20,000 nucleotides of DNA from an uncultured virus (IMG/VR IMGVR_UViG_3300028588_000802) (Duplodnaviria > Heunggongvirae > Uroviricota > Caudoviricetes). This document shows, piece by piece, positions 1,589-18,751 of this stretch (its first letter is position 1; each line of letters opens with the position of its first letter). The notes beneath the pieces were generated by a model. The model worked only from the letters and a program-made list of their open reading frames with translations, ran no database searches and had not been told where the DNA came from. The stretch lies in IMG/VR virus record IMGVR_UViG_3300028588_000802; one strand, written 5' to 3'. Made by a program: the position numbers and the translations under genes.

Positions 1589-2179
1589 ATGCCATCTCTA
1601 ACCCATCCCTGGTCGGCGCCCGCCGCCAACCTGTCCCTCATCCGCGAAGTCCGATTCACGGCTAGGCCGGGTGCGGTGGTGCCCGCGGCAATGAAGGCCC
1701 GGGTGCTGACGGCGCTTGCGGCGTGGGTGGAGCAAGCGAGAGCACACGTGTCGAAGGACTTCCCTGCGCCCAACGTAAGCTTCGACCTAAATGGCTCCTG
1801 CGCTGGCGAAGCATACTCCGGGCTTGGGCTGATTAGGCTCAATCCCGTTCTGCTACTCGCGGAGCCTGACACATTCGAGAAAATCATTCTTCCGCATGAG
1901 CTGGGGCACCTGCTTGCGCACTATCTGCATGGTGACGACATTTCGCCACATGGTGCAGAGTGGGCGGCGGTGATGCGCCTGCTAGGCGTCGAGCCGCGTC
2001 GACACCACAGCATCGTGAACCCAAAGGACGTCGGCGGGTACGCCTGTTCCTGTAATGACGACAATCGGCTTACATATCGGCAGCACCAGAAGGCTCGCAC
2101 CGGGCAGGTGTACTGCTGCGTCGAGTGCCATGGGCCACTTACGTACCGTGACGGCGCTTCCGTGGTGGCACCCGACTAG
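1589..2179 (+). CDS. SprT-like zinc metalloprotease (196 aa)
   Basis: IRLNPVLL..ILPHELGH (HExxH)..HGAEW..M motif and a C-terminal zinc ribbon (YACSC..CVEC), as in SprT proteins. Confidence 0.9.
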   Translation: MPSLTHPWSAPAANLSLIREVRFTARPGAVVPAAMKARVLTALAAWVEQARAHVSKDFPAPNVSFDLNGSCAGEAYSGLGLIRLNPVLLLAEPDTFEKIILPHELGHLLAHYLHGDDISPHGAEWAAVMRLLGVEPRRHHSIVNPKDVGGYACSCNDDNRLTYRQHQKARTGQVYCCVECHGPLTYRDGASVVAPD

Positions 2180-2224
2180 GAGTCGGCAGTCGCTATATGG
2201 GTATTACCCCGATGGCCGCTGCTA

Positions 2225-3247
2225 ATGCACTCGACGCCTCTACAACTTCCGCGGGAAGTCCCCATTTCCAAGCGGCGCGCACCGCCCGTTGCCGCGGCGG
2301 TTAAAGAACGCGCAAGACAGTCCTTGGCCAACTGGGTCGCTATCGCGCAGGCCCGGTTCGGCCAGCCCCTCTTCGTCCCCACTATCAGTTTCGACCTGGT
2401 CGGCACAGCAGGGGGAATGGCGTACACCGAGAAGTTGCACGTCCAGCTCAATGGAGTCCTTTTAACCGAAAACCTCGAAGAATTCGAGCGGCAAATCATT
2501 CCGCATGAGCTGGCGCACCTTTTGGTTCAGTTCCGCCATGGCTTCCCCGGCGGGCATGGCAAAGAGTGGAAGGCCACGATGCGCACGCTTGGGCTTGAGC
2601 CGGACCGCACGCATAGCCTGGACACAACGAATTCCCGTACCACTCCAGTCGTCCTCGGGTACCGATGCGATTGCGGCCCACGTCCAGTGTCGATGAAAGA
2701 GCACCGGAGTGTTCAGCGTGGGGGATGGATTAAGTGCAAGCGATGTCAGAAGAAGTATGTGCTGGAAGGTGCGCCGCAGCTGAAGATGCCGGGGAAGGCC
2801 CCGGTTCCTCTTTCGCAGGTACGAGTAGTGCCTCGGGGCCGCCCTGTTGCCCCGCCATCCGTGTATCGACCGACACCGCCGGCGCCATCTGCTCGAGCGC
2901 CGACTGAGCGAATGCTTAGTTTTGCGAGCTCTTTGGCGGCTAAACACAGCATCACGTTGGACGCTGCAAGTCGACGTGATTTCAGGGCGTGCCAGGCCTT
3001 CTTGGACAAGTGGAGCAAGGCTCCAGTCGCTCCGCGGCCGGCAGGGCCGGTGCCGCGGCTTGAGCCACGTCCGGCGCCGTTGCCGGCTCCTCGCCCGGCT
3101 GTCCCAACTCCGAACAGTTTTGACGCGCCTACAGAGCGCCAGCTAGAGTATGCCCGCAGCATCGCGTCGCGGAAGAGGCTTGACATCCCTGCTGCTGTCT
3201 TGGGGTCCAAGCGAGGGCTGTCCGCTTGGATTGACCAGCACAAATGA
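2225..3247 (+). CDS. SprT-like metalloprotease with Pro-rich linker and two C-terminal helical repeats (340 aa)
   Basis: IIPHELAH, HGKEWKATM, YRCDC..CKRC, then two ~40-aa repeats that each begin APTER. Confidence 0.88.
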   Translation: MHSTPLQLPREVPISKRRAPPVAAAVKERARQSLANWVAIAQARFGQPLFVPTISFDLVGTAGGMAYTEKLHVQLNGVLLTENLEEFERQIIPHELAHLLVQFRHGFPGGHGKEWKATMRTLGLEPDRTHSLDTTNSRTTPVVLGYRCDCGPRPVSMKEHRSVQRGGWIKCKRCQKKYVLEGAPQLKMPGKAPVPLSQVRVVPRGRPVAPPSVYRPTPPAPSARAPTERMLSFASSLAAKHSITLDAASRRDFRACQAFLDKWSKAPVAPRPAGPVPRLEPRPAPLPAPRPAVPTPNSFDAPTERQLEYARSIASRKRLDIPAAVLGSKRGLSAWIDQHK

Positions 3248-5268: not shown

Positions 5269-5355
5269 AAGGCAAGCCAGTCCCTGGCGAGATTTTTGTT
5301 CTTAAATTTGTAACCGTTATCGGTTGCCTCGTTCAGCTAGGCTTATTTCATCACT

Positions 5356-6309
5356 ATGCGCCATCCCCTTCCTACGCAACACCAAGAAGTCTATGCCGCG
5401 TTTATTTCAAAAATCGTGGACGATGCCGCTAACCGGGAATTTACTCGTAGCTTGGTCGGGCGCCATGTAGTTACAATGCTTATGGAGCAACGGGCGGAGA
5501 TGGCGAAGGCTCAAACTGAGGGAGAGCCTATTGATACGTTCAAGTACGTCGGCTCCTTCATTCTTGCACTTCACGACTACGTCAAATGGATGTCCGAAAA
5601 AGGCGAGGAGTTCCGCGCCAAGCTTGACGAAGAGTTCGCACGCCTTACCGAAGTCTGGGAGAACAAGGCTCGCCACTCCTGGATGACGGACCATGGCAGA
5701 TTCCGATTGCAGAGGGCACTGGACTTGCAGCCGATGACCCGGCAACATTCCGCGCTGTTCCCGTTACGTACACGGGCGATGACGGCAACGCTAATTGCGG
5801 CTTACGACGCGCTTGCAACCGCATCGCCGGCGGAGAACTGGAAAATTGCGTTGGAGGCCTTTTTCGGCGCGTACAAGAACTACCGGTTCGACTTCGTTGC
5901 CCTCACAAAAACGGCAGGGCCGGCTTTCATCGCGCAGAATGGTCTCGTAACCGAGATGGTCCAGGACATTGATGAGCGTATCGCAGCTATCGAGCGAAAA
6001 GCCAGAGCGCAGGTAGCTGCGGAATTGGCGGCCGAGCGCGCCGCGGCGGAGGCTCAGGAAGACGAGGATGACACCGCGCAGGCGCCGCATTACGCAGGGG
6101 ATTCGTACCCGGCAGGGCGCACGGCAGCTGTCCTGGATGAGCCGTTCGAGAGCTCCAACACTGCCTGGGAATTAGATTCGTCTTTCGAGTCCGTGGACAA
6201 TAGCTATTGGACTTACGAGCAGGAGTACAACCCAGCGAACGGCCTGCCTATGGTCGGGGCGTATGATACCAACAACAATATGTACGGCACGAACTTCAAC
6301 GATTTCTGA
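5356..6309 (+). CDS. Hypothetical helical protein with an acidic tail and C-terminal NPANGLPM motif (317 aa)
   Basis: Long ORF with protein-like composition. The C-terminus is YNPANGLPMVGAYDTNNNMYGTNFNDF. Confidence 0.8.
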   Translation: MRHPLPTQHQEVYAAFISKIVDDAANREFTRSLVGRHVVTMLMEQRAEMAKAQTEGEPIDTFKYVGSFILALHDYVKWMSEKGEEFRAKLDEEFARLTEVWENKARHSWMTDHGRFRLQRALDLQPMTRQHSALFPLRTRAMTATLIAAYDALATASPAENWKIALEAFFGAYKNYRFDFVALTKTAGPAFIAQNGLVTEMVQDIDERIAAIERKARAQVAAELAAERAAAEAQEDEDDTAQAPHYAGDSYPAGRTAAVLDEPFESSNTAWELDSSFESVDNSYWTYEQEYNPANGLPMVGAYDTNNNMYGTNFNDF

Positions 6310-6443
6310 CCGCGGGGCCGCCGCCGGGGCTAGACCCTGGTTTGCGGCTCACGACGGCCGCCGCGCAATCGATACGTAAGCACTCCTCTCCGGAGAACTA
6401 CTCCTGCAGAGCGAATTTGTTCCAGCTCCCTATACATGGTCTA

Positions 6444-6557
6444 GGCCACAACAGCCTGCCGTCTGCGCCACCTCGGTGGTATGGCAAACGTTGGTTAAAC
6501 CCCTCCCAATTCGCAAACCCGCCTCGTAGGCACAAGGGTGAGCGGAGCAATGCAGAC
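6444..6557 (+). ncRNA. Candidate structured RNA in the leader of the Glyoxalase_8-like gene
   Basis: Nested stems found by eye: TGCCGT/ATGGCA enclosing GCCAC-ctcg-GTGGT; TTCGC/GCGGA enclosing ACCC/GGGT and GCCT/AGGC; long-range pairing GTCTGCG(6461-6467)/TGCAGAC(6551-6557). Confidence 0.45.
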
Positions 6558-6611
6558 AGTTCCAAGGACATCATCATGACCATCGCCCTTGCGCAAACAA
6601 GGAATAGAGAA

Positions 6612-7298
6612 ATGCACAACTCGCAACTGCAACTGAAGGACCTGTCGGAGAAGAACGCAAAGGCACTGGCAAGCTCGGTGACGAAGTTTTTGAAAGCTCA
6701 TGGCATCGAGCTTCAACACACGAAGGCACTTGACCTGACTGGCACCCTCTGTGGATTCGGCAACTGGCAAGGCCTGCAGGCGGCCATCGTCAAGAAGGAA
6801 GAGGAGGACGCGTCTAAGCCCATCATTATGAGCTACGACGAGTTCTTTGACACCTTCCGGCCTGTGAAAAACAAGCTGGACCCACATGCTCCGGCAGATG
6901 GGTATGGGTTTGAAACCTACGGCGCCGAGTGGGAAGCGGTTCAAGCTGCTCACGCTCGAGACCCCGGCACCGTCTGGACCGTCGTTGACGGCGAGGGCAC
7001 TGCCTGGCTCTCCGAGGGGCTGCACTACGTGAACCGGGCGTTCTACTTCATCACCAGGAAGCCTGCGATTGCCGGCCGGGTCTACAACATCCCTTACGGG
7101 CATGAGGTAGGCGACCTGGCTTTTGAGATTTCGGTTATCAATCCGGACACGCAAGAGTCGGAAATTATCGACGTGCGCTATGGCGCTTCCGCTGAAGAGG
7201 TGCTGGCCGATGCAAGTATCGACTACACCGAAGAAGTCGAAGGCGTTGTTGAAGAAGGCCAATCCCGAGTCATCATCGTAAAGCAGGTCGCACACTGA
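6612..7298 (+). CDS. Protein with an N-terminal Glyoxalase_8 (PF20066)-like helical domain fused to an uncharacterised domain
   Basis: KNAKALASSVTKFLKAHGIELQHTKALDLTGTLCGFGNWQGLQA fits the K..AK.L...L...G..l.h..AL.l.a...G..nW..l.A pattern. AAGGA SD precedes ATG 6612; ATG 6576 is an alternative start. Confidence 0.75.
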   Translation: MHNSQLQLKDLSEKNAKALASSVTKFLKAHGIELQHTKALDLTGTLCGFGNWQGLQAAIVKKEEEDASKPIIMSYDEFFDTFRPVKNKLDPHAPADGYGFETYGAEWEAVQAAHARDPGTVWTVVDGEGTAWLSEGLHYVNRAFYFITRKPAIAGRVYNIPYGHEVGDLAFEISVINPDTQESEIIDVRYGASAEEVLADASIDYTEEVEGVVEEGQSRVIIVKQVAH

Positions 7299-7308
7299 CC
7301 TTTCATTT

Positions 7309-7338
7309 GCCCTCAACTAACGTTGAGGGCTTTTTTTT
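7309..7338 (+). terminator. Rho-independent terminator
   Basis: GCCCTCAAC-taac-GTTGAGGGC followed by T8, 10 bp after the stop codon. Confidence 0.92.
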
Positions 7339-7418
7339 GCCTTGCGGGCACCTTGGGAAGCCTTCACGGCGGCCGGTTCGCTATACCTCGTAGGACATCA
7401 TCTTTTCGAGGTAAAACC

Positions 7419-7685
7419 ATGTGCACCACCTTCTTCTGCCCCAGCTGCCGTCGTCACAAAGACCTGTCAGCACGCAGCGACCGCAAGTCGAGCAACTCCT
7501 ACGTTTGCACGACATGCGAAGAGCGCATCAACAAGCTGACAAAGCCAAAAGTGCTCAAAACCCGTGATGGTCAGGAATTCACCATCAAAGGTCAGCACGT
7601 TCAGACTTCTCGCGTCAACGCGGCTAACGCCCGTGCACTGGAAACCGTGAAGTGGCTGGAGACGCATGTGGTAGCACGCCTCTGA
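7419..7685 (+). CDS. Small zinc-ribbon hypothetical protein (88 aa)
   Basis: GAGGT SD before ATG 7419; CPSC..CTTC motifs; flanked by terminators. Confidence 0.75.
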   Translation: MCTTFFCPSCRRHKDLSARSDRKSSNSYVCTTCEERINKLTKPKVLKTRDGQEFTIKGQHVQTSRVNAANARALETVKWLETHVVARL

Positions 7686-7710
7686 CACGAAACTTTCCAA
7701 CGTAATTAAC

Positions 7711-7739
7711 AACGCCTCCAATCGGAGGCGTTTTTCTTT
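7711..7739 (+). terminator. Rho-independent terminator between convergent genes
   Basis: AACGCCTCC-aatc-GGAGGCGTT followed by TTTCTTT. Confidence 0.85.
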
Positions 7740-7757
7740 GGGCGGGCGCCGCGCAGC

Positions 7758-8963
7758 TTACGCGGCGAGCCTGTCCTCGGGGGTCAGGCTAAAGCGGCTC
7801 AAGTCCTTCACCGAGCGCAGGATTGCGATACCTGCGGTGCCCAGAACGGTCACGACCTCGTCGCCCTCGAGCAGCCAGTCGAAGAAGCGCGTTTTCAGGC
7901 GCACTCCGAGGGAGTCACTCAGCCGGGCGCACTTCACGCCGCCACTCGGCGCTTTCACGAGCATCACCTGGTCGGAATAGAGTCGCAGCTCCATTGGCTG
8001 ACCACGCTTCATGCCCACCACCTTGCCGGCCAGTCCGTCGATGTCGATGTGGCGAGTGTGCACCTTGCCGGATTCGAGCACTGGAAGGATGGTCCAGGCG
8101 ACGGCGCCGATGCCGGCGGCATCCTCTTGCGTGCTCGGGGGGACTGCCATCTCCGGCCCATCGAGTTTTTCACGTCCCTTGTGCTTTTCGGAGAAGTTAC
8201 GCTTTGCAACCTCGACCATTGACACGCGCATCTCGTCTTCATCGCCCAGACCGAACTTGGCCAACTCGTCCTTGGAAGGAAGAAGAGTGATGCCATCCCG
8301 GCCGTAGACTGCAACGACCTGGCTCTGCTCGCCGAACTGCTCGAAATATCGGGCGCTCAGGCGGAAGCCTGGGAACGTTTTCTTGTCCATGCACAGAAGG
8401 GAGCCTTCATCGTCTTTCAACACGGTGACCCGGTCTTCATAGACAGTGACCCGCACGCGGTCGCCTGGTGCCAGGCCGGTGTCGCTGAGGAATTTGCCCT
8501 GCACGTCGATGAATCGGATGTGCGCGCGGTCCTTTAGCGCAGAGACCGCCGCCCAGCGCCAGCCGAAGGCCGAGAAGGCCTTGTGGTCAGGGGTGTCGAG
8601 CGTTGGCATCGGAAGATTGATTGGTCGCAGCACAAGCGCGCCGGCGAGGGCGGCGATGGACAGCTGGGCATCAATCGGCAGGCCCATAGCCTCGGAGTGC
8701 AGTTGGATTTTCTGCTCGAAGTCGACTGTTACGCACGCCAGTCGAGTTGGGTCTTCGGCGCGGCGCAGGACCCAGCCTTCTGCATGGCGGAAGAGCTGAA
8801 GTCGGCTTCCCGCTTCGAGGCCCGAGGCCTTCAGGAAGCGCGCAGGGATTCGGAATCGCCAGGACCCGTTACTGGCATAGGCTCGGCTTTGGCCGGACAG
8901 AAGTGGCTCGTCGGCCGGCAGTGGAACTTCGGTTGCAATTGTCGATACGATAAAAGGGCTCAT
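7758..8963 (-). CDS. Multi-repeat AbrB/MazE/SymE-like swapped-hairpin protein (401 aa)
   Basis: FRIPARFLKASGLEAGSRL, IDVQGKFLSDTGLAPGDRVRVTVYEDRVTV and IDIDGLAGKVVGMKRGQPMELRLYSDQVML each match AbrB/SymE-type motifs. There is an internal ~100-aa duplication. Confidence 0.65.
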   Translation of the reverse strand: MSPFIVSTIATEVPLPADEPLLSGQSRAYASNGSWRFRIPARFLKASGLEAGSRLQLFRHAEGWVLRRAEDPTRLACVTVDFEQKIQLHSEAMGLPIDAQLSIAALAGALVLRPINLPMPTLDTPDHKAFSAFGWRWAAVSALKDRAHIRFIDVQGKFLSDTGLAPGDRVRVTVYEDRVTVLKDDEGSLLCMDKKTFPGFRLSARYFEQFGEQSQVVAVYGRDGITLLPSKDELAKFGLGDEDEMRVSMVEVAKRNFSEKHKGREKLDGPEMAVPPSTQEDAAGIGAVAWTILPVLESGKVHTRHIDIDGLAGKVVGMKRGQPMELRLYSDQVMLVKAPSGGVKCARLSDSLGVRLKTRFFDWLLEGDEVVTVLGTAGIAILRSVKDLSRFSLTPEDRLAA

Positions 8964-9514: not shown

Positions 9515-10201
9515 TTAGCCTTGGCTTAAAATCGGCTTGGAAGCTTGTAGGAGAACTTCTGCTAGTCCTTCCAGCGATTCGCTGCTATTTAGCCGCTTAG
9601 CGGCGCTACCCAGAGCGATTCGCATGCGTCGATTATGGATACGCAAAGCCGTAATTTCGTCGACAACCGTTTCGTGGCCGCCCAGCAGGTTGAAGTCCAC
9701 GTCCAGTGAGCGAAGCGCTTCCGCATTGCCCATTGCATCGACCAACGGGTCGTGCGTTGCCTTTGTGACGATTCGCTCGCGCCATTCGCGGCCCGCGTGA
9801 AGGTTTGCTACCAGGCCGCCGTAGATGTCGCCGATTCGTTTCGCGGAGTGTCCGAACGGGTTGCCCGCCGTGAACGCATGGAAGTAGTAGTTGATGAACT
9901 GCCAGTCGAAGGCCGGGTTGTCGGACACGAATACAACGTCCCGGTCCTGGGCACGCAGCGCCATCACCCACTTGTGGAACTCGTTCATTACCGGTGCCGG
10001 GTCAGAATAGGTCAAGTGCTGTTCGCGAGTCACGCCAGAGATGGCCAGCGACTCCGGGTCCCACCTCTCGGAAATTGGGCGAACGTTCGCGCGGAACGTG
10101 GTCTTGAGCTCTTGGTCGACGCGCACGGCGGCGAAGCTGACCATAGAGAACAGCCCCGCTGCGGGGCCGTCCGCTTCAACGTCTACAACGACTGGAATCA
10201 T
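9515..10201 (-). CDS. DEDDh 3'-5' exonuclease (DnaQ-like, RNase AS/DUF5051-type)
   Basis: ExoI VVVDVEADGP, ExoII SDNPAFDWQFINYYF, ExoIII HDPLVDAMGNA. Confidence 0.88.
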   Translation of the reverse strand: MIPVVVDVEADGPAAGLFSMVSFAAVRVDQELKTTFRANVRPISERWDPESLAISGVTREQHLTYSDPAPVMNEFHKWVMALRAQDRDVVFVSDNPAFDWQFINYYFHAFTAGNPFGHSAKRIGDIYGGLVANLHAGREWRERIVTKATHDPLVDAMGNAEALRSLDVDFNLLGGHETVVDEITALRIHNRRMRIALGSAAKRLNSSESLEGLAEVLLQASKPILSQG

Positions 10202-12272: not shown

Positions 12273-15200
12273 TTAAGCGGTAGGCAAGCCAGGGAAAAAT
12301 TCCGAGACGCGGAATGCGCCGGTAGCGGTATAGCATTGCGGCGGGAACCACACGTCGTCAAGAGGAAACGCATTCTTGCGGCTGAAGTGGCCACGCTCCG
12401 GCTCCAGCTTACCTGCAGCAAGCAAGGTCAACGAGTGGTCCAGCTTCGCTGGTCCTTCGTATTGGCGGTCGGACAGCATGTAATCGCAGTAGCTCGAGAC
12501 GCCGGTCGCCATGATGCCGAGCTTGAAGTCTTTGGCTTCGGCGCGCGTTTGCACCGTGAAATTAAGCTCTGGCCCGACGTACGGGATTGGCTTCTTGTCC
12601 GCACCTTTACGCAGCTTTGGCAGCGTATAGCCCTGCTCGCTGAGAACCGCGCGCTGTGCATCCGAGCCGTAGAAATACAGCAGGTCGTACACCTTCACAC
12701 GGAGGCCCAGGGCGCTCCGGCGCGCGGTTTTGAGCGCAATCGGAATCAGCACGTCTTCATTCTTTTCTGCGGGGTTGCGGTCCGATGCCCACGACTTTGT
12801 CTGGGCCGTCAGCAGGAGCCAAGCTTCGTCACTAACGCCTTGACGCTCGCCCTTGAACGCGCCGGACAGGACGCGAACGCATTCGGCCGTTTTGTCGAGC
12901 ATAGCCTGCAGCTCTTCAAGCGAACCACCGCGAGTGTCGGCTTCCGAGCGCTCGAATTCGCACTCGGTTGCGACCCGGTGCATCTCAGTCTCGCCAAGGA
13001 TGACACCTTTCGGCAGCCAAACAGTCGTCGGCGCTTCCTTGCTTGGTTTGCCAGCCACGTTGAAGGTACGGCGACCAACCCATTGCCAGTTCGCGATACG
13101 CGGGTCGCGCTCCTCGGCCGGCTGCTCGTAATAGGCGACGAGCATGCCTTTCTTGCCGCGAGTGATGCGCACGACCTTGCCGCCGACGGCTTCCACGCAA
13201 GCGATAACCTTTGGAACGGCGTTGAGGTAGCTGAAAGCCGTTTCAGCCAGCTGTCGGTCGAGAACCTCGAACTCATGCGATGCCGTATGCGGCAGCACGC
13301 TCACGCTCACTTCGCGCGTCGAGTGCTTCTCGCGCCAGGTCTGAATAGCGGACAGCACCGCGGCGTCGGCCGCGCTGACAGGCAGACCGTAGTGGTGGAC
13401 GGCACGGTCCTTGAGCAGCGCCACGCCAGGCGCATTTTCTGCTTCCTCTTCGCCGAGCAGCTGGATAGCCAGCTTGAAACCGTAGAGGTAGTTTTCGTGC
13501 GATGCGCGGCTGCGGCGGTTGTAGACGAACGGACGCAGTTCGTCCACCTTGACGGTATCTGCAATCAGGTAGCCCAGCCGGTCGTGCTCTAGCTTGTTGA
13601 GTGCGACGCGAACGTCAAAGTGCGTGCGCTCGAGCTTGCGGCGGGTCCAACCGCTGTACGAATACGAGTCCGTACGCTCGACAGGGAGGTACACGACCAG
13701 GTCGCCCTTGTCCCGGAACACGGTCAGCATGTTCGTCTTGCTGCGCGCACGCACGAGCAGGCTCGGGTCGGTGCGGTAGCTGCCAGGGCTGTAGGCGCCG
13801 GGAGCAGCTCGTTGCTGGAGCAGCTCGCGACCGAACACCAACACGCGGCAGCCGGCCGTCAGCTGGTCATGGTTCTGTCGGATGAGCTCATGGACCGAGC
13901 CCACATTGTCGCCGAGCATGACGTCGCCGTCGTCATCGGAGACGAAGCGCATGTACTTTGCCTGGAAGCTCATCGAAATGAAGCTAAACGTCTCGCTGTC
14001 CGGGTAGAAGTCACCGAAGAGCTTGTGCATGTGGTCCAGGCCGCAGGCCAGAATCAGGAATCGCTTGTAGGTCAGCGATTTCCGGTCGAACTCTTTCGTG
14101 CGATTCGTGAAGCGCAGGTCGTCGAAGTTGATTTGTTCGCCATCCAGGCCGCGGAAGACCTCGTTCATTTCGTTGCGCGTCGGGAACAGACGCGCCGAGA
14201 CTTCGTGCGACGGCTCATCCGACCAAACCTGGTACCAGTTCTCGCCGTTGCGCACGAGCAGGAACAGAGCCTTGTTGTGGTTGTTGCGGGCTTCGTTGTT
14301 GATGATGTCGGCCAGCGACTTCGCGTCGTACTTAACGTCGCTGCGACGAATAGCCATCGACACCACGCCACGGGGCGCCGGAATGAGCTGTTGACGCAGC
14401 GTCTCGTTGGTTTCCAGCTCTTTGAAGAAGTCGTCGGTGTGCGTATAGTCGAAATTTGGGGTCACATCCGCCCACACAGCGAATTCCTCGGCCATGAAGA
14501 GCTTGCGCTGGTACAGCGTCAGAGGCTCGGTCGACGGCGCCGCGGCGCCTTTCAGCAGTGGATTGATGGTAACGCCTTCGCCGGTGTAGAGGCGCAATGA
14601 TGCCAGGCCCTTCTCGACGTCCTTGGCCAACCCGAGCTGGTCGTGTGCGCGTGCCAGAGCCACGGCCGCATGCTCAGCCATGAACGGAGTAAGGCGCTGC
14701 AGGTGGCGGCCCATCTTCTCGGCTTTTTCTTTAATCCAGGTGCCTTGGATTTCGGCAATCTTGCCCTGTTTTTGAGCCATGTGGCGGAATACCGCTACGT
14801 CCGTGGAGCGAATCTTGTGCTGGACAGCGGCGGACAGGTTGAAGCGGCCGTTGGTGGTAAGGGCCGGCAGATTGGAGGAGGGCTTGGCGTCAACCTCTTC
14901 ATCGTCTTCGCCGCGCTCACGTTCACGCGCACGCGCGAGGTCCGCTTCCCACTTGCGCAGGCCTTCTTCGATTACGGGCTGCAGGACGGCAGGGTTGGTC
15001 TGTGACTCGGCGATTTCTGCCTGGACGTCGGCAACGTCCTGGTGAATCTGGGCCATCTGACGCTCGCGGAATTCACGGGCTTCGTCGTCGGGCAGCACTT
15101 CGAAGTTGGCCATGAGCATGTCGATGGTCAGTTTGCCCTTGCAGTTGCCCTGAGTCGGGTCGTCGAGCAGGACGACCGTATGGAGCTTGCCGTCAACGAA

Positions 15201-15401
15201 CTCGAGGTTGACCAGCAGATACAGGGCCGATTCGACGAACTTAAAGGAGGAGCCTTCACGCCACTCCGCCATGCCGGTCGTGTCCTTATTGCAGTACCAG
15301 AAGTGACCTGGCTCGATAATGGCGGTGTGCTCGATGCGGTGGATGTTACCCGAGTCTTTGTCGTCGTCGCGGTCGCTGTCGAGAATAATCAGTTCGCTCA
15401 T
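12273..15401 (-). CDS. Large hypothetical protein (~1042 aa) with an N-terminal coiled-coil region
   Basis: >3 kb ORF with GC3-biased codons. AGGA SD precedes ATG 15401 (alternative start 15443). No catalytic motif recognised. Confidence 0.9.
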   Translation of the reverse strand: MSELIILDSDRDDDKDSGNIHRIEHTAIIEPGHFWYCNKDTTGMAEWREGSSFKFVESALYLLVNLEFVDGKLHTVVLLDDPTQGNCKGKLTIDMLMANFEVLPDDEAREFRERQMAQIHQDVADVQAEIAESQTNPAVLQPVIEEGLRKWEADLARARERERGEDDEEVDAKPSSNLPALTTNGRFNLSAAVQHKIRSTDVAVFRHMAQKQGKIAEIQGTWIKEKAEKMGRHLQRLTPFMAEHAAVALARAHDQLGLAKDVEKGLASLRLYTGEGVTINPLLKGAAAPSTEPLTLYQRKLFMAEEFAVWADVTPNFDYTHTDDFFKELETNETLRQQLIPAPRGVVSMAIRRSDVKYDAKSLADIINNEARNNHNKALFLLVRNGENWYQVWSDEPSHEVSARLFPTRNEMNEVFRGLDGEQINFDDLRFTNRTKEFDRKSLTYKRFLILACGLDHMHKLFGDFYPDSETFSFISMSFQAKYMRFVSDDDGDVMLGDNVGSVHELIRQNHDQLTAGCRVLVFGRELLQQRAAPGAYSPGSYRTDPSLLVRARSKTNMLTVFRDKGDLVVYLPVERTDSYSYSGWTRRKLERTHFDVRVALNKLEHDRLGYLIADTVKVDELRPFVYNRRSRASHENYLYGFKLAIQLLGEEEAENAPGVALLKDRAVHHYGLPVSAADAAVLSAIQTWREKHSTREVSVSVLPHTASHEFEVLDRQLAETAFSYLNAVPKVIACVEAVGGKVVRITRGKKGMLVAYYEQPAEERDPRIANWQWVGRRTFNVAGKPSKEAPTTVWLPKGVILGETEMHRVATECEFERSEADTRGGSLEELQAMLDKTAECVRVLSGAFKGERQGVSDEAWLLLTAQTKSWASDRNPAEKNEDVLIPIALKTARRSALGLRVKVYDLLYFYGSDAQRAVLSEQGYTLPKLRKGADKKPIPYVGPELNFTVQTRAEAKDFKLGIMATGVSSYCDYMLSDRQYEGPAKLDHSLTLLAAGKLEPERGHFSRKNAFPLDDVWFPPQCYTATGAFRVSEFFPGLPTA

Positions 15402-15458
15402 TTGGTGTCCTATCGAAGCCGGCCCAGCTGGCCGTGAGTTCATATTTTTAGAACAGCT

Positions 15459-16714: not shown

Positions 16715-18751
<2,037 letters not shown>

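Follow-up and report, generated by a model that had tools for sequence, protein, structure and literature searches.

The window analysed here is a 20,000-nucleotide (nt) stretch of DNA from an uncultured virus of the Caudoviricetes (IMG/VR record IMGVR_UViG_3300028588_000802). On its + strand it carries a gene for a protein of 228 amino acids (aa) at 6612-7298, and a gap of 303 nt separates the stop codon of the preceding open reading frame (ORF), 5356-6309, from the ATG at 6612. Judged by sequence comparison, positions 6427-6611 of this gap are the 5' leader of the gene and belong to a conserved RNA family, the members of which are structured, roughly 150-190 nt long and fixed in their architecture. 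A structured, pseudoknotted RNA directly upstream of the gene had been proposed from the letters of the window alone (hereafter the original prediction), and the comparative evidence given below upheld it. The following features were assigned, all of them on the + strand.

6428-6435, + strand: conserved box CCCTATAC at the 5' edge of the element; positions 1-9 of the covariance model R1 (see below), near-invariant in its seed
6443-6446 and 6454-6457, + strand: hairpin H1, AGGC pairing with GCCT, loop CACAACA; conserved in the family
6458-6462 and 6481-6485, + strand: helix P1 (G6458-T6462/A6481-C6485), enclosing PKa and P3
6461-6467, + strand: PKa, GTCTGCG, which connects P1 with P3 and provides the 5' pseudoknot strand by pairing with 6551-6557
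6468-6471 and 6476-6479, + strand: hairpin P3 (C6468-C6471/G6476-G6479), loop CTCG
6486-6489, + strand: purine-rich, A-rich junction after P1, AAAC here and GAAU in most copies
6490-6529, + strand: variable linker, differing in length and sequence among copies, with the C/U-rich stretch CCCCTCCC at 6500-6507
6530-6541, + strand: P5a, GCACAAGGGTGA, the 5' strand of the long-range helix P5, pairing with 6583-6594 at 11 of 12 positions
6546-6550, + strand: junction J, AGCAA, directly 5' of PKb; family pattern G-Y-A-A-Y
6551-6557, + strand: PKb, the 3' strand of the pseudoknot, TGCAGAC, within the P5 loop
6565-6575, + strand: motif AGGACATCATC between PKb and P5b
6583-6594, + strand: P5b, TCGCCCTTGCGC, the 3' strand of P5, ending 4 nt before the Shine-Dalgarno (SD) sequence
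6599-6604, + strand: SD sequence AAGGAA, read from the sequence, 7 nt before ATG 6612
6612-7298, + strand: gene for the 228-aa protein, with an N-terminal three-helix domain of PF20066 type (about residues 8-68) and an alpha/beta C-terminal domain
7309-7330, + strand: terminator-like hairpin after the gene, followed by a T run

The orthologous gene in a metagenome-assembled genome (MAG) of Agitococcus (locus L001) encodes a protein of 59% identity, and its leader is 67.7% identical to that of the window over 161 nt. The blocks common to both leaders run from the CTATAC box to the ribosome-binding site. A covariance model of the 5' domain, R1, was built from seven leaders and comprised 64 positions and 14 pairs. 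When searched against 27 sources (131,395 bases), R1 gave 26 matches at E<=1. Twenty-two of these were located upstream of the 24 N-domain genes examined, i.e. the window gene, 15 genes of the Agitococcus MAG (G001) and eight of a Variovorax megaplasmid (W01). The suggestion in the original prediction that similar leaders precede genes with this N-terminal domain was thereby confirmed, and wider cases were found on plasmids. The window showed exactly one R1 match (6427-6492, 65.9 bits). Over the whole Agitococcus MAG and the Variovorax plasmid, nine and six matches, respectively, were obtained at E<=0.01; 14 of these 15 are followed by PF20066-matched genes and the remaining one (L157) precedes an ORF in which the domain was recognised by a hidden Markov model (HMM) built from the paralogues. 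Among the weaker matches, L158 and L160 likewise precede N-domain ORFs by the paralogue HMM, while L159 (17.4 bits) does not. Three of four further leader matches thus precede N-domain ORFs, and leaders without such a gene are the exceptions L159, L154 and L155.

In the model-fitted alignment of the 26 matches, 88.3% of cells were paired, compared with 74.1% after shuffling (0/500) and 36-41% when the partners were slid. H1 showed 88.5% of cells paired, with three of four pairs changing on both sides, and 87.5% on a structure-blind alignment. P3 showed 96.4% paired cells, and all four Watson-Crick types were observed at pair 79/110 (CG9, GC9, UA4, AU2). P1 was paired in 80.6% of cells, pair 69/115 being GU9, GC6 and AU4. 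In the junction after P1, G58 and A62 were invariant and A61 was conserved in at least 90% of 20 leaders. As a model-fitted alignment leans towards its model, an alignment-free search was also run; in all of the 21 leaders but L146 (the leader of locus L001), it revealed a Watson-Crick hairpin immediately 5' of the AYGGY motif. In addition, the pairs of the window were imposed on a structure-blind MAFFT alignment of ten full leaders, where 76.2% of cells were paired versus 67.0% shuffled (0/500) and 34-45% slid, the imposed structure being derived from one of the aligned sequences. Six of the seven pseudoknot pairs changed on both sides in this alignment; one of them, for instance, read CG6, UA3 and GC1, without an unpaired case. 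G-U pairs, which would be A-C mismatches on the other strand, were frequent in P1, P3 and P5, indicating that the + strand is the functional one.

The pseudoknot, which has 5-7 bp in the family and links the P1-P3 connecting strand with the P5 loop, was investigated in 21 leaders. The 8 nt ending at the first P3 base were matched as the best gapless helix with the downstream part of their own leader and of every other leader. Cognate pairing summed to 354, compared with 273.9 +/- 10.5 for permuted leaders (0/20000), and an A-A junction was found directly before the chosen PKb in 19 of the 21 leaders, though it had not been used in the search. The same design applied to P5 gave a cognate sum of 504 versus 345.8 +/- 16.5 (0/20000). 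Spacings were also kept: the distance was 8-14 nt from P5a to PKb, 13-28 nt from PKb to P5b and 15-23 nt from P5b to the ATG in 17 to 19 of the 21 leaders, depending on the spacing, with L136, L140, L146 and L134 lying outside at least one range. The last spacing held in 18 of 21, and its exceptions L136, L140 and L134 have a doubtful start codon or P5 call. MAFFT left P5 out of register.

These comparisons sorted the individual pairings of the original prediction. A conserved covarying motif upstream of homologues, the lack of which would have contradicted that prediction, was found (0/500 and 0/20000 in the tests above). The pairing TGCCGT/ATGGCA corresponds to P1, GCCAC-ctcg-GTGGT corresponds to hairpin P3, and GTCTGCG 6461-6467 with TGCAGAC 6551-6557 forms the pseudoknot; all three lie where they had been placed and are conserved and covary in the relatives. 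Two further pairings fell. The outer pairing of GGCC..AAC (6444-6452) with GTT..GGTT (6490-6496) is not kept in the relatives, GGCC being part of the conserved H1, and the second nested stem at 6510-6546 is no feature of the family, its 3' half overlapping P5a, for which every relative keeps the partner strand 6583-6594.

The 5' edge of the element was seen independently in a DNA contig from an air metagenome (run X7). This contig matches 6427-6580 with four changed letters and two gaps and diverges exactly upstream of 6427, indicating that the edge of the conserved element lies there; two of its substitutions and a 2-nt deletion fall in the variable linker (6496, 6500 and 6509). A hexamer [CT]TA[TC]A[CG] occurs in 17 of 21 leaders, 154-198 nt before the chosen start codon and, in the window, 182 nt before ATG 6612. 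The box CCCTATAC may be a promoter element resembling a -10 box or may represent the first bases of the RNA. A sigma-70 promoter scan found no + strand site before the leader and no consensus match for the CTATAC box, and by eye no -35 element was found upstream of that box. A second box, CGCTATAC, is present at 7379-7386, 42 nt ahead of a small ORF that starts at ATG 7421 and has a weak match, below cut-off, to a zinc ribbon (E 0.005). This suggests a promoter-like element shared by neighbouring genes. These two are the only box matches in the window, and 19 of 200 shuffled sequences also reach two.

One could suppose that the region is coding, as an extension of the gene from TTG 6342 or ATG 6576, or that the fold arose by mere chance. 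The frame is indeed open upstream as far as TTG 6342, a 12-aa extension equivalent to ATG 6576 is called in 4 of 20 homologues, and the folding energy is not significant (see below). Sixteen of the 20 aligned homologues, however, start at the equivalent of ATG 6612, so that no coding extension from TTG 6342 is conserved, and in the orthologue from Agitococcus a TAA stop lies in frame, two codons 5' of the ATG. Starts at 6342 and 6576 were rejected on these two grounds, and translation of the leader as an N-terminal extension of ORF 6342-7298, which would have contradicted the original prediction, is not the case. The called extension, moreover, overlaps P5b, the conservation of which is explained by RNA pairing, and chance is opposed by the covariation tests of the 5' domain, the pseudoknot and P5. 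We therefore give next to no credence to a coding region or a chance fold.

Rfam 15 showed no match at gathering score in the whole window and nothing relevant in six related loci. The Rfam comparison that had been suggested for this region returned, at E<=10 in 6250-6850, no ribozyme model and only two chance matches on the minus strand. The leader family is therefore absent from Rfam 15 and uncatalogued. A literature search found no mention of PF20066 or Glyoxalase_8. Nothing relevant was found in passages of PMC8632094 and PMC11109978. A preprint (bioRxiv 10.64898/2026.10.21.760802) mentions a motif, cluster #630,527, that precedes glyoxalase, flavin-monooxygenase or NmrA genes; it could be the same RNA as the leader or a different one.

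The original prediction had noted an echo of hepatitis delta virus (HDV)-like ribozymes. P1 of these ribozymes has 6-7 pairs and starts with G-U at the cleavage site, and their P1.1 forms between the 5-8-nt loop L3 and the strand after P1. The leader resembles HDV_ribozyme, CPEB3, HDV-F-prausnitzii and their relatives in Rfam in the nested double-pseudoknot order of its strands (P1, pseudoknot strand, P3, P1', variable part, A-rich junction, second pseudoknot strand), with a short P3 within P1. G-U is also the commonest first pair of P1 (11 of 26), and (C/U)AA closes the A-rich junction that leads into the last pseudoknot strand. The echo of helix order thus held, and P1 could now be placed as the GCCGT/AYGGY helix; membership of the ribozyme class was not supported. 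P1 has only 3-5 pairs, and in 13 of 26 leaders the innermost one is not formed. Most of the P3 loops have 3-4 nt (range 3-7), with unrelated sequences such as CTCG, TTCG, GCAA, TCAC and TTTT, in place of a long L3; being short and variable, they leave no P1.1 possible. The junction C, invariant in the ribozymes, is not so here: the position that would be catalytic is C in nine, U in seven and G in three of 19 leaders. H1, which lies 5' of the would-be cleavage site, is a conserved hairpin, the additional helix P5, tied to the SD sequence, crosses the pseudoknot, and no covariance model of Rfam matches this RNA. As the hallmark features tested fail, the leader was not filed as an HDV-like ribozyme. 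That it is a self-cleaving ribozyme of this type, or a derivative keeping the fold, whose cleavage immediately 5' of P1 would determine where the mRNA begins and how stable it is, is very improbable. An HDV-like strand order is evidently possible in an RNA lacking the catalytic hallmarks of the ribozyme.

The gene partners of the leader were characterised by the N-terminal domain of their products. The 228-aa protein is a gene call on record in the protein collection, with 19 relatives of 52-69% identity. Its PF20066 match is weak (E 0.002, 18.6 bits versus a curated cut-off of 23.7, which it does not reach) and aligns residues 12-64 with profile positions 7-59 of 143 only, while the HMM built from paralogues scores the protein at 5e-20. 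The PF20066 profile gave 15 matches in the Agitococcus MAG and eight on the 816-kb Variovorax plasmid, and none in 14 control genomes. These paralogues, in open frames of 232-417 aa, pass the cut-off, and their matches, too, span only about positions 4-72 of the 143. As the matches are confined to the N-terminal part of the profile, the window protein shares the helical module and not the glyoxalase-fold part. Pfam assigned no family to any C-terminal part of 22 paralogues. The AlphaFold model of the N-domain shows three helices (residues 13-29, 36-46 and 52-68) with a mean predicted local distance difference test score of 83.9; Foldseek found no match for it in the PDB at E<=0.001.

When the N-domain was used in tblastn, canonical genes of about 110-155 aa annotated as 'glyoxalase superfamily protein' were found on plasmids. 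On plasmids of Pseudomonas and Microbulbifer, R1, run without filters, matched directly upstream of these canonical PF20066 genes. The match in Paracoccus and Agrobacterium vitis precedes a MATE efflux gene, the end of which overlaps the PF20066 gene. Inspection by eye and by script showed H1, P1, P3, the junctions, the covarying pseudoknot and P5 in the plasmid copies. The leader of the MATE type was found on five alphaproteobacterial plasmids (82-100% identity) and that of the Pseudomonas type on 19 Pseudomonas plasmids, including P. aeruginosa plasmids of 160-275 kb. Of 1.84 billion cluster representatives, 3193 were matched by the N-domain profile at E<=0.001. The best 150 of them are 59 to 596 aa long, and in 147 the domain begins within the first 29 residues. 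Among 400 sampled genomes of its class, the Agitococcus MAG alone passed the PF20066 cut-off, which indicates a patchy system with a link to mobile elements. Close relatives of the whole protein were limited, in genome contigs, to L001 and a distant Afipia match, and none were found in metagenome contigs, viral contigs or phage records. A two-motif DNA pattern scan of metagenome contigs yielded 120 stretches, and among 122 loci L001 was the sole tblastn or blastn relative, besides one uninspected 18-nt blastn match (L115). Blastn against plasmids gave no match with window 5300-7800 in near mode or with the leader in distant mode. Taken together, the leaders form an uncatalogued bacterial family that occurs mostly on plasmids and other mobile DNA, before N-domain genes and drug-efflux operons, and probably controls translation.

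We consider it likely that the leader, having the fold described and P5 next to the SD sequence, acts in cis on translation initiation by hiding the SD sequence. The SD/start region would be paired with the base of the P5 domain and with the pyrimidine-rich stretch that precedes P5a, the fully folded, pseudoknot-locked leader would keep the ribosome-binding site closed, and a factor binding or remodelling the double-pseudoknot core would set how often it opens. Pairing of the 16 nt 5' of P5a with the SD/start region scored 335, versus 293 +/- 12.2 permuted (13/20000; 1/2000 shuffles), and pairing of the SD flank is clear by eye in the MATE, the Pseudomonas and several G001 copies. In ViennaRNA models the SD sequence was mostly paired. 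Its mean unpaired probability was 0.37 without constraint, 0.28 when P5 was formed and the pseudoknot strands were kept open, and 0.41 when P5a was blocked. Between the last two states, the SD sequence was less accessible with P5 formed in seven of the 19 leaders, and more accessible in none.

Several results weigh against this reading. The minimum free energy (MFE) of 6436-6565 is no better than chance (z = -1.03, 26 of 200 shuffles folding as well), and that of the whole intergenic region gave z = -0.18 (minus strand, z = -0.34); by the thermodynamics of the single sequence, the stems proposed at the outset are no more than chance would give. The contigs of two metatranscriptome runs stop within the coding region (6758-6982 and 7150-7300), none covering the leader, so that its transcription and its start are putative. 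The leader of the Agitococcus orthologue has no clear P3. The statistics of the 3' domain rest on helices picked by the author's own scripts together with the MAFFT-alignment test. The SD-closing helix of the window itself is weak, the best gapless match being 3 bp and the accessibility 0.25-0.27 in all states. Finally, as regards a protein effector, the leader on the plasmids of Ensifer and Thioclava stands before a MATE gene or what remains of one, with no PF20066 match on the plasmid (plasmids only, chromosomes not being searched).

For a control of translation by SD hiding, the leading candidate for the effector, although a speculative one, is the PF20066-type helical domain encoded downstream, which would exert autogenous feedback across the paralogues. 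It is suggested by the near-exclusive association of the leader with this domain and by the lack of a common C-terminal function. As in an autogenous operator, the leader stands before the gene or operon of a candidate binding protein (22 of 24 N-domain genes). The T4 gene 32 leader pseudoknot and ribosomal-protein leaders are alike in placing a pseudoknot leader before the gene of the candidate binder, with the SD sequence at the edge of the fold. The present leader is unlike them in that the candidate binding domain, for which binding is a hypothesis here, is fused to many unrelated C-terminal parts, that 18 or more copies occur per genome, and that some leaders have no gene for the protein nearby. 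A wide VIA-align search (best Z 5.1) showed no structural relative of the domain among RNA-binding folds, which argues, if weakly, against a protein effector. A further idea is that the N-terminal domain, of 55-65 aa, and the leader make up a portable RNA-protein module in which the domain recognises the double pseudoknot of its own leader; this is possible but less likely than not.

A small-molecule ligand is almost as likely an effector as the N-domain, in view of the MATE and VOC-fold context and of the two plasmids without a PF20066 gene; these two also argue against an obligatory partner encoded in cis. It is possible, and no firmer than that, that the leader is a riboswitch whose double-pseudoknot core is the aptamer for a toxic compound or a signal. 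The ligand would shift the equilibrium between P5 and the SD sequence and thereby switch on MATE efflux, the VOC-fold 'glyoxalase superfamily' protein and, on mobile elements, an N-domain regulon. The leader has the generic riboswitch feature of a conserved, covarying, aptamer-like fold in a 5' leader, here compact and pseudoknotted, with conserved unpaired purines beside the SD-proximal helix. MATE genes lie behind the leaders on the five alphaproteobacterial plasmids, two of them those without a PF20066 gene, and the canonical partners are annotated as glyoxalase-superfamily proteins. Many copies per genome, as in G001 with 18 or more, occur with second-messenger riboswitches. The ZTP/pfl and preQ1-III riboswitches are alike in having a 5' sub-domain and a 3' hairpin, a variable linker, a long-range pseudoknot and a 3' helix beside the ribosome-binding site. 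No sequence or model similarity to them was found, however, and the genes concerned form one protein domain plus MATE pumps, not a metabolic pathway. Few unpaired nucleotides are conserved beyond the two A-rich junctions, the P3 loops vary freely, the regulated proteins share the N-terminal domain only, their C-terminal parts being without a known family, a ligand cannot be named, and Rfam offers no match.

AGGACA was enriched in the mobile-element leaders (11 occurrences in 21 leaders versus 0.8 expected, with a maximum of 5 in 1000 shuffles), a motif that resembles a GGA site of the CsrA/RsmA type; the SD sequence itself contains AAGGA. The leader might accordingly be a platform for a general regulator such as a protein of this type, binding at AGGA motifs, or a constitutive structural module without a dedicated effector, which would protect the 5' end and give horizontally moving genes a low, insulated rate of translation. 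A csrA gene following the PF20066 gene on a plasmid of P. tremae is consistent with the former. AGGACA is absent, however, from the alphaproteobacterial and Pseudomonas leaders examined, and a three-helix pseudoknot covarying across alpha-, beta- and gammaproteobacterial replicons exceeds the needs of a protective hairpin. We regard a constitutive module or CsrA/RsmA-type platform as unlikely. The 11-mer AGGACATCATC occurs twice in the window, in the leader at 6565-6575 and in the next intergenic gap at 7392-7402. On P. tremae plasmid p1 (L148, 3708-4374), the csrA gene is accompanied by a traR/dksA gene directly after the leader-bearing PF20066 gene.

The RNA class is well supported, missing from Rfam 15 and unusual in its three-helix pseudoknot topology, and it is strictly linked to a domain of unknown function with 3193 cluster representatives in public data. 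It precedes MATE operons and 'glyoxalase superfamily' genes on large plasmids of Pseudomonas (including P. aeruginosa), rhizobia and Paracoccus, and it offers a handle on the role and the switching of unannotated mobile-element genes, as either an orphan riboswitch candidate or a new pair of RNA-protein recognition. If the leader and the N-domain do form a portable module, it would provide a common handle for feedback or assembly to fast-diversifying proteins with interchangeable C-terminal parts on plasmids, islands and phages, as well as to drug-efflux operons. The domain would then be a new RNA-binding domain with its cognate RNA, possibly as a ribonucleoprotein carrying variable effectors.

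On contigs C1, C29, C18, C13 and C34 of the Agitococcus MAG, the leader-bearing paralogues are clustered, two to five genes lying a few kb apart at most and every gene having a leader of its own. One of the N-domain cluster representatives, P0021 of 462 aa, has four stretches matched by the profile, so that tandem repetition of the domain is possible. Stand-alone relatives of about 110 aa of the C-terminal part of the window protein (residues 66-162) are encoded on Vibrio plasmids of about 300 kb, beside toprim and oligoribonuclease genes (L125, 3983-4315), and further relatives of this part are found on Methylomonas and Sphingopyxis plasmids. In the window, a 1056-aa ORF at 12273-15443 on the minus strand showed no Pfam match. 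The surroundings of the gene look like mobile-element cargo and include two SprT-like ORFs, an RNase T-type exonuclease, an additional NAD-dependent DNA ligase and a 401-aa ORF with repeated weak matches of the AbrB/MazE/SymE type (1589-3247, and on the minus strand 9515-10201, 16715-18745 and 7758-8963).

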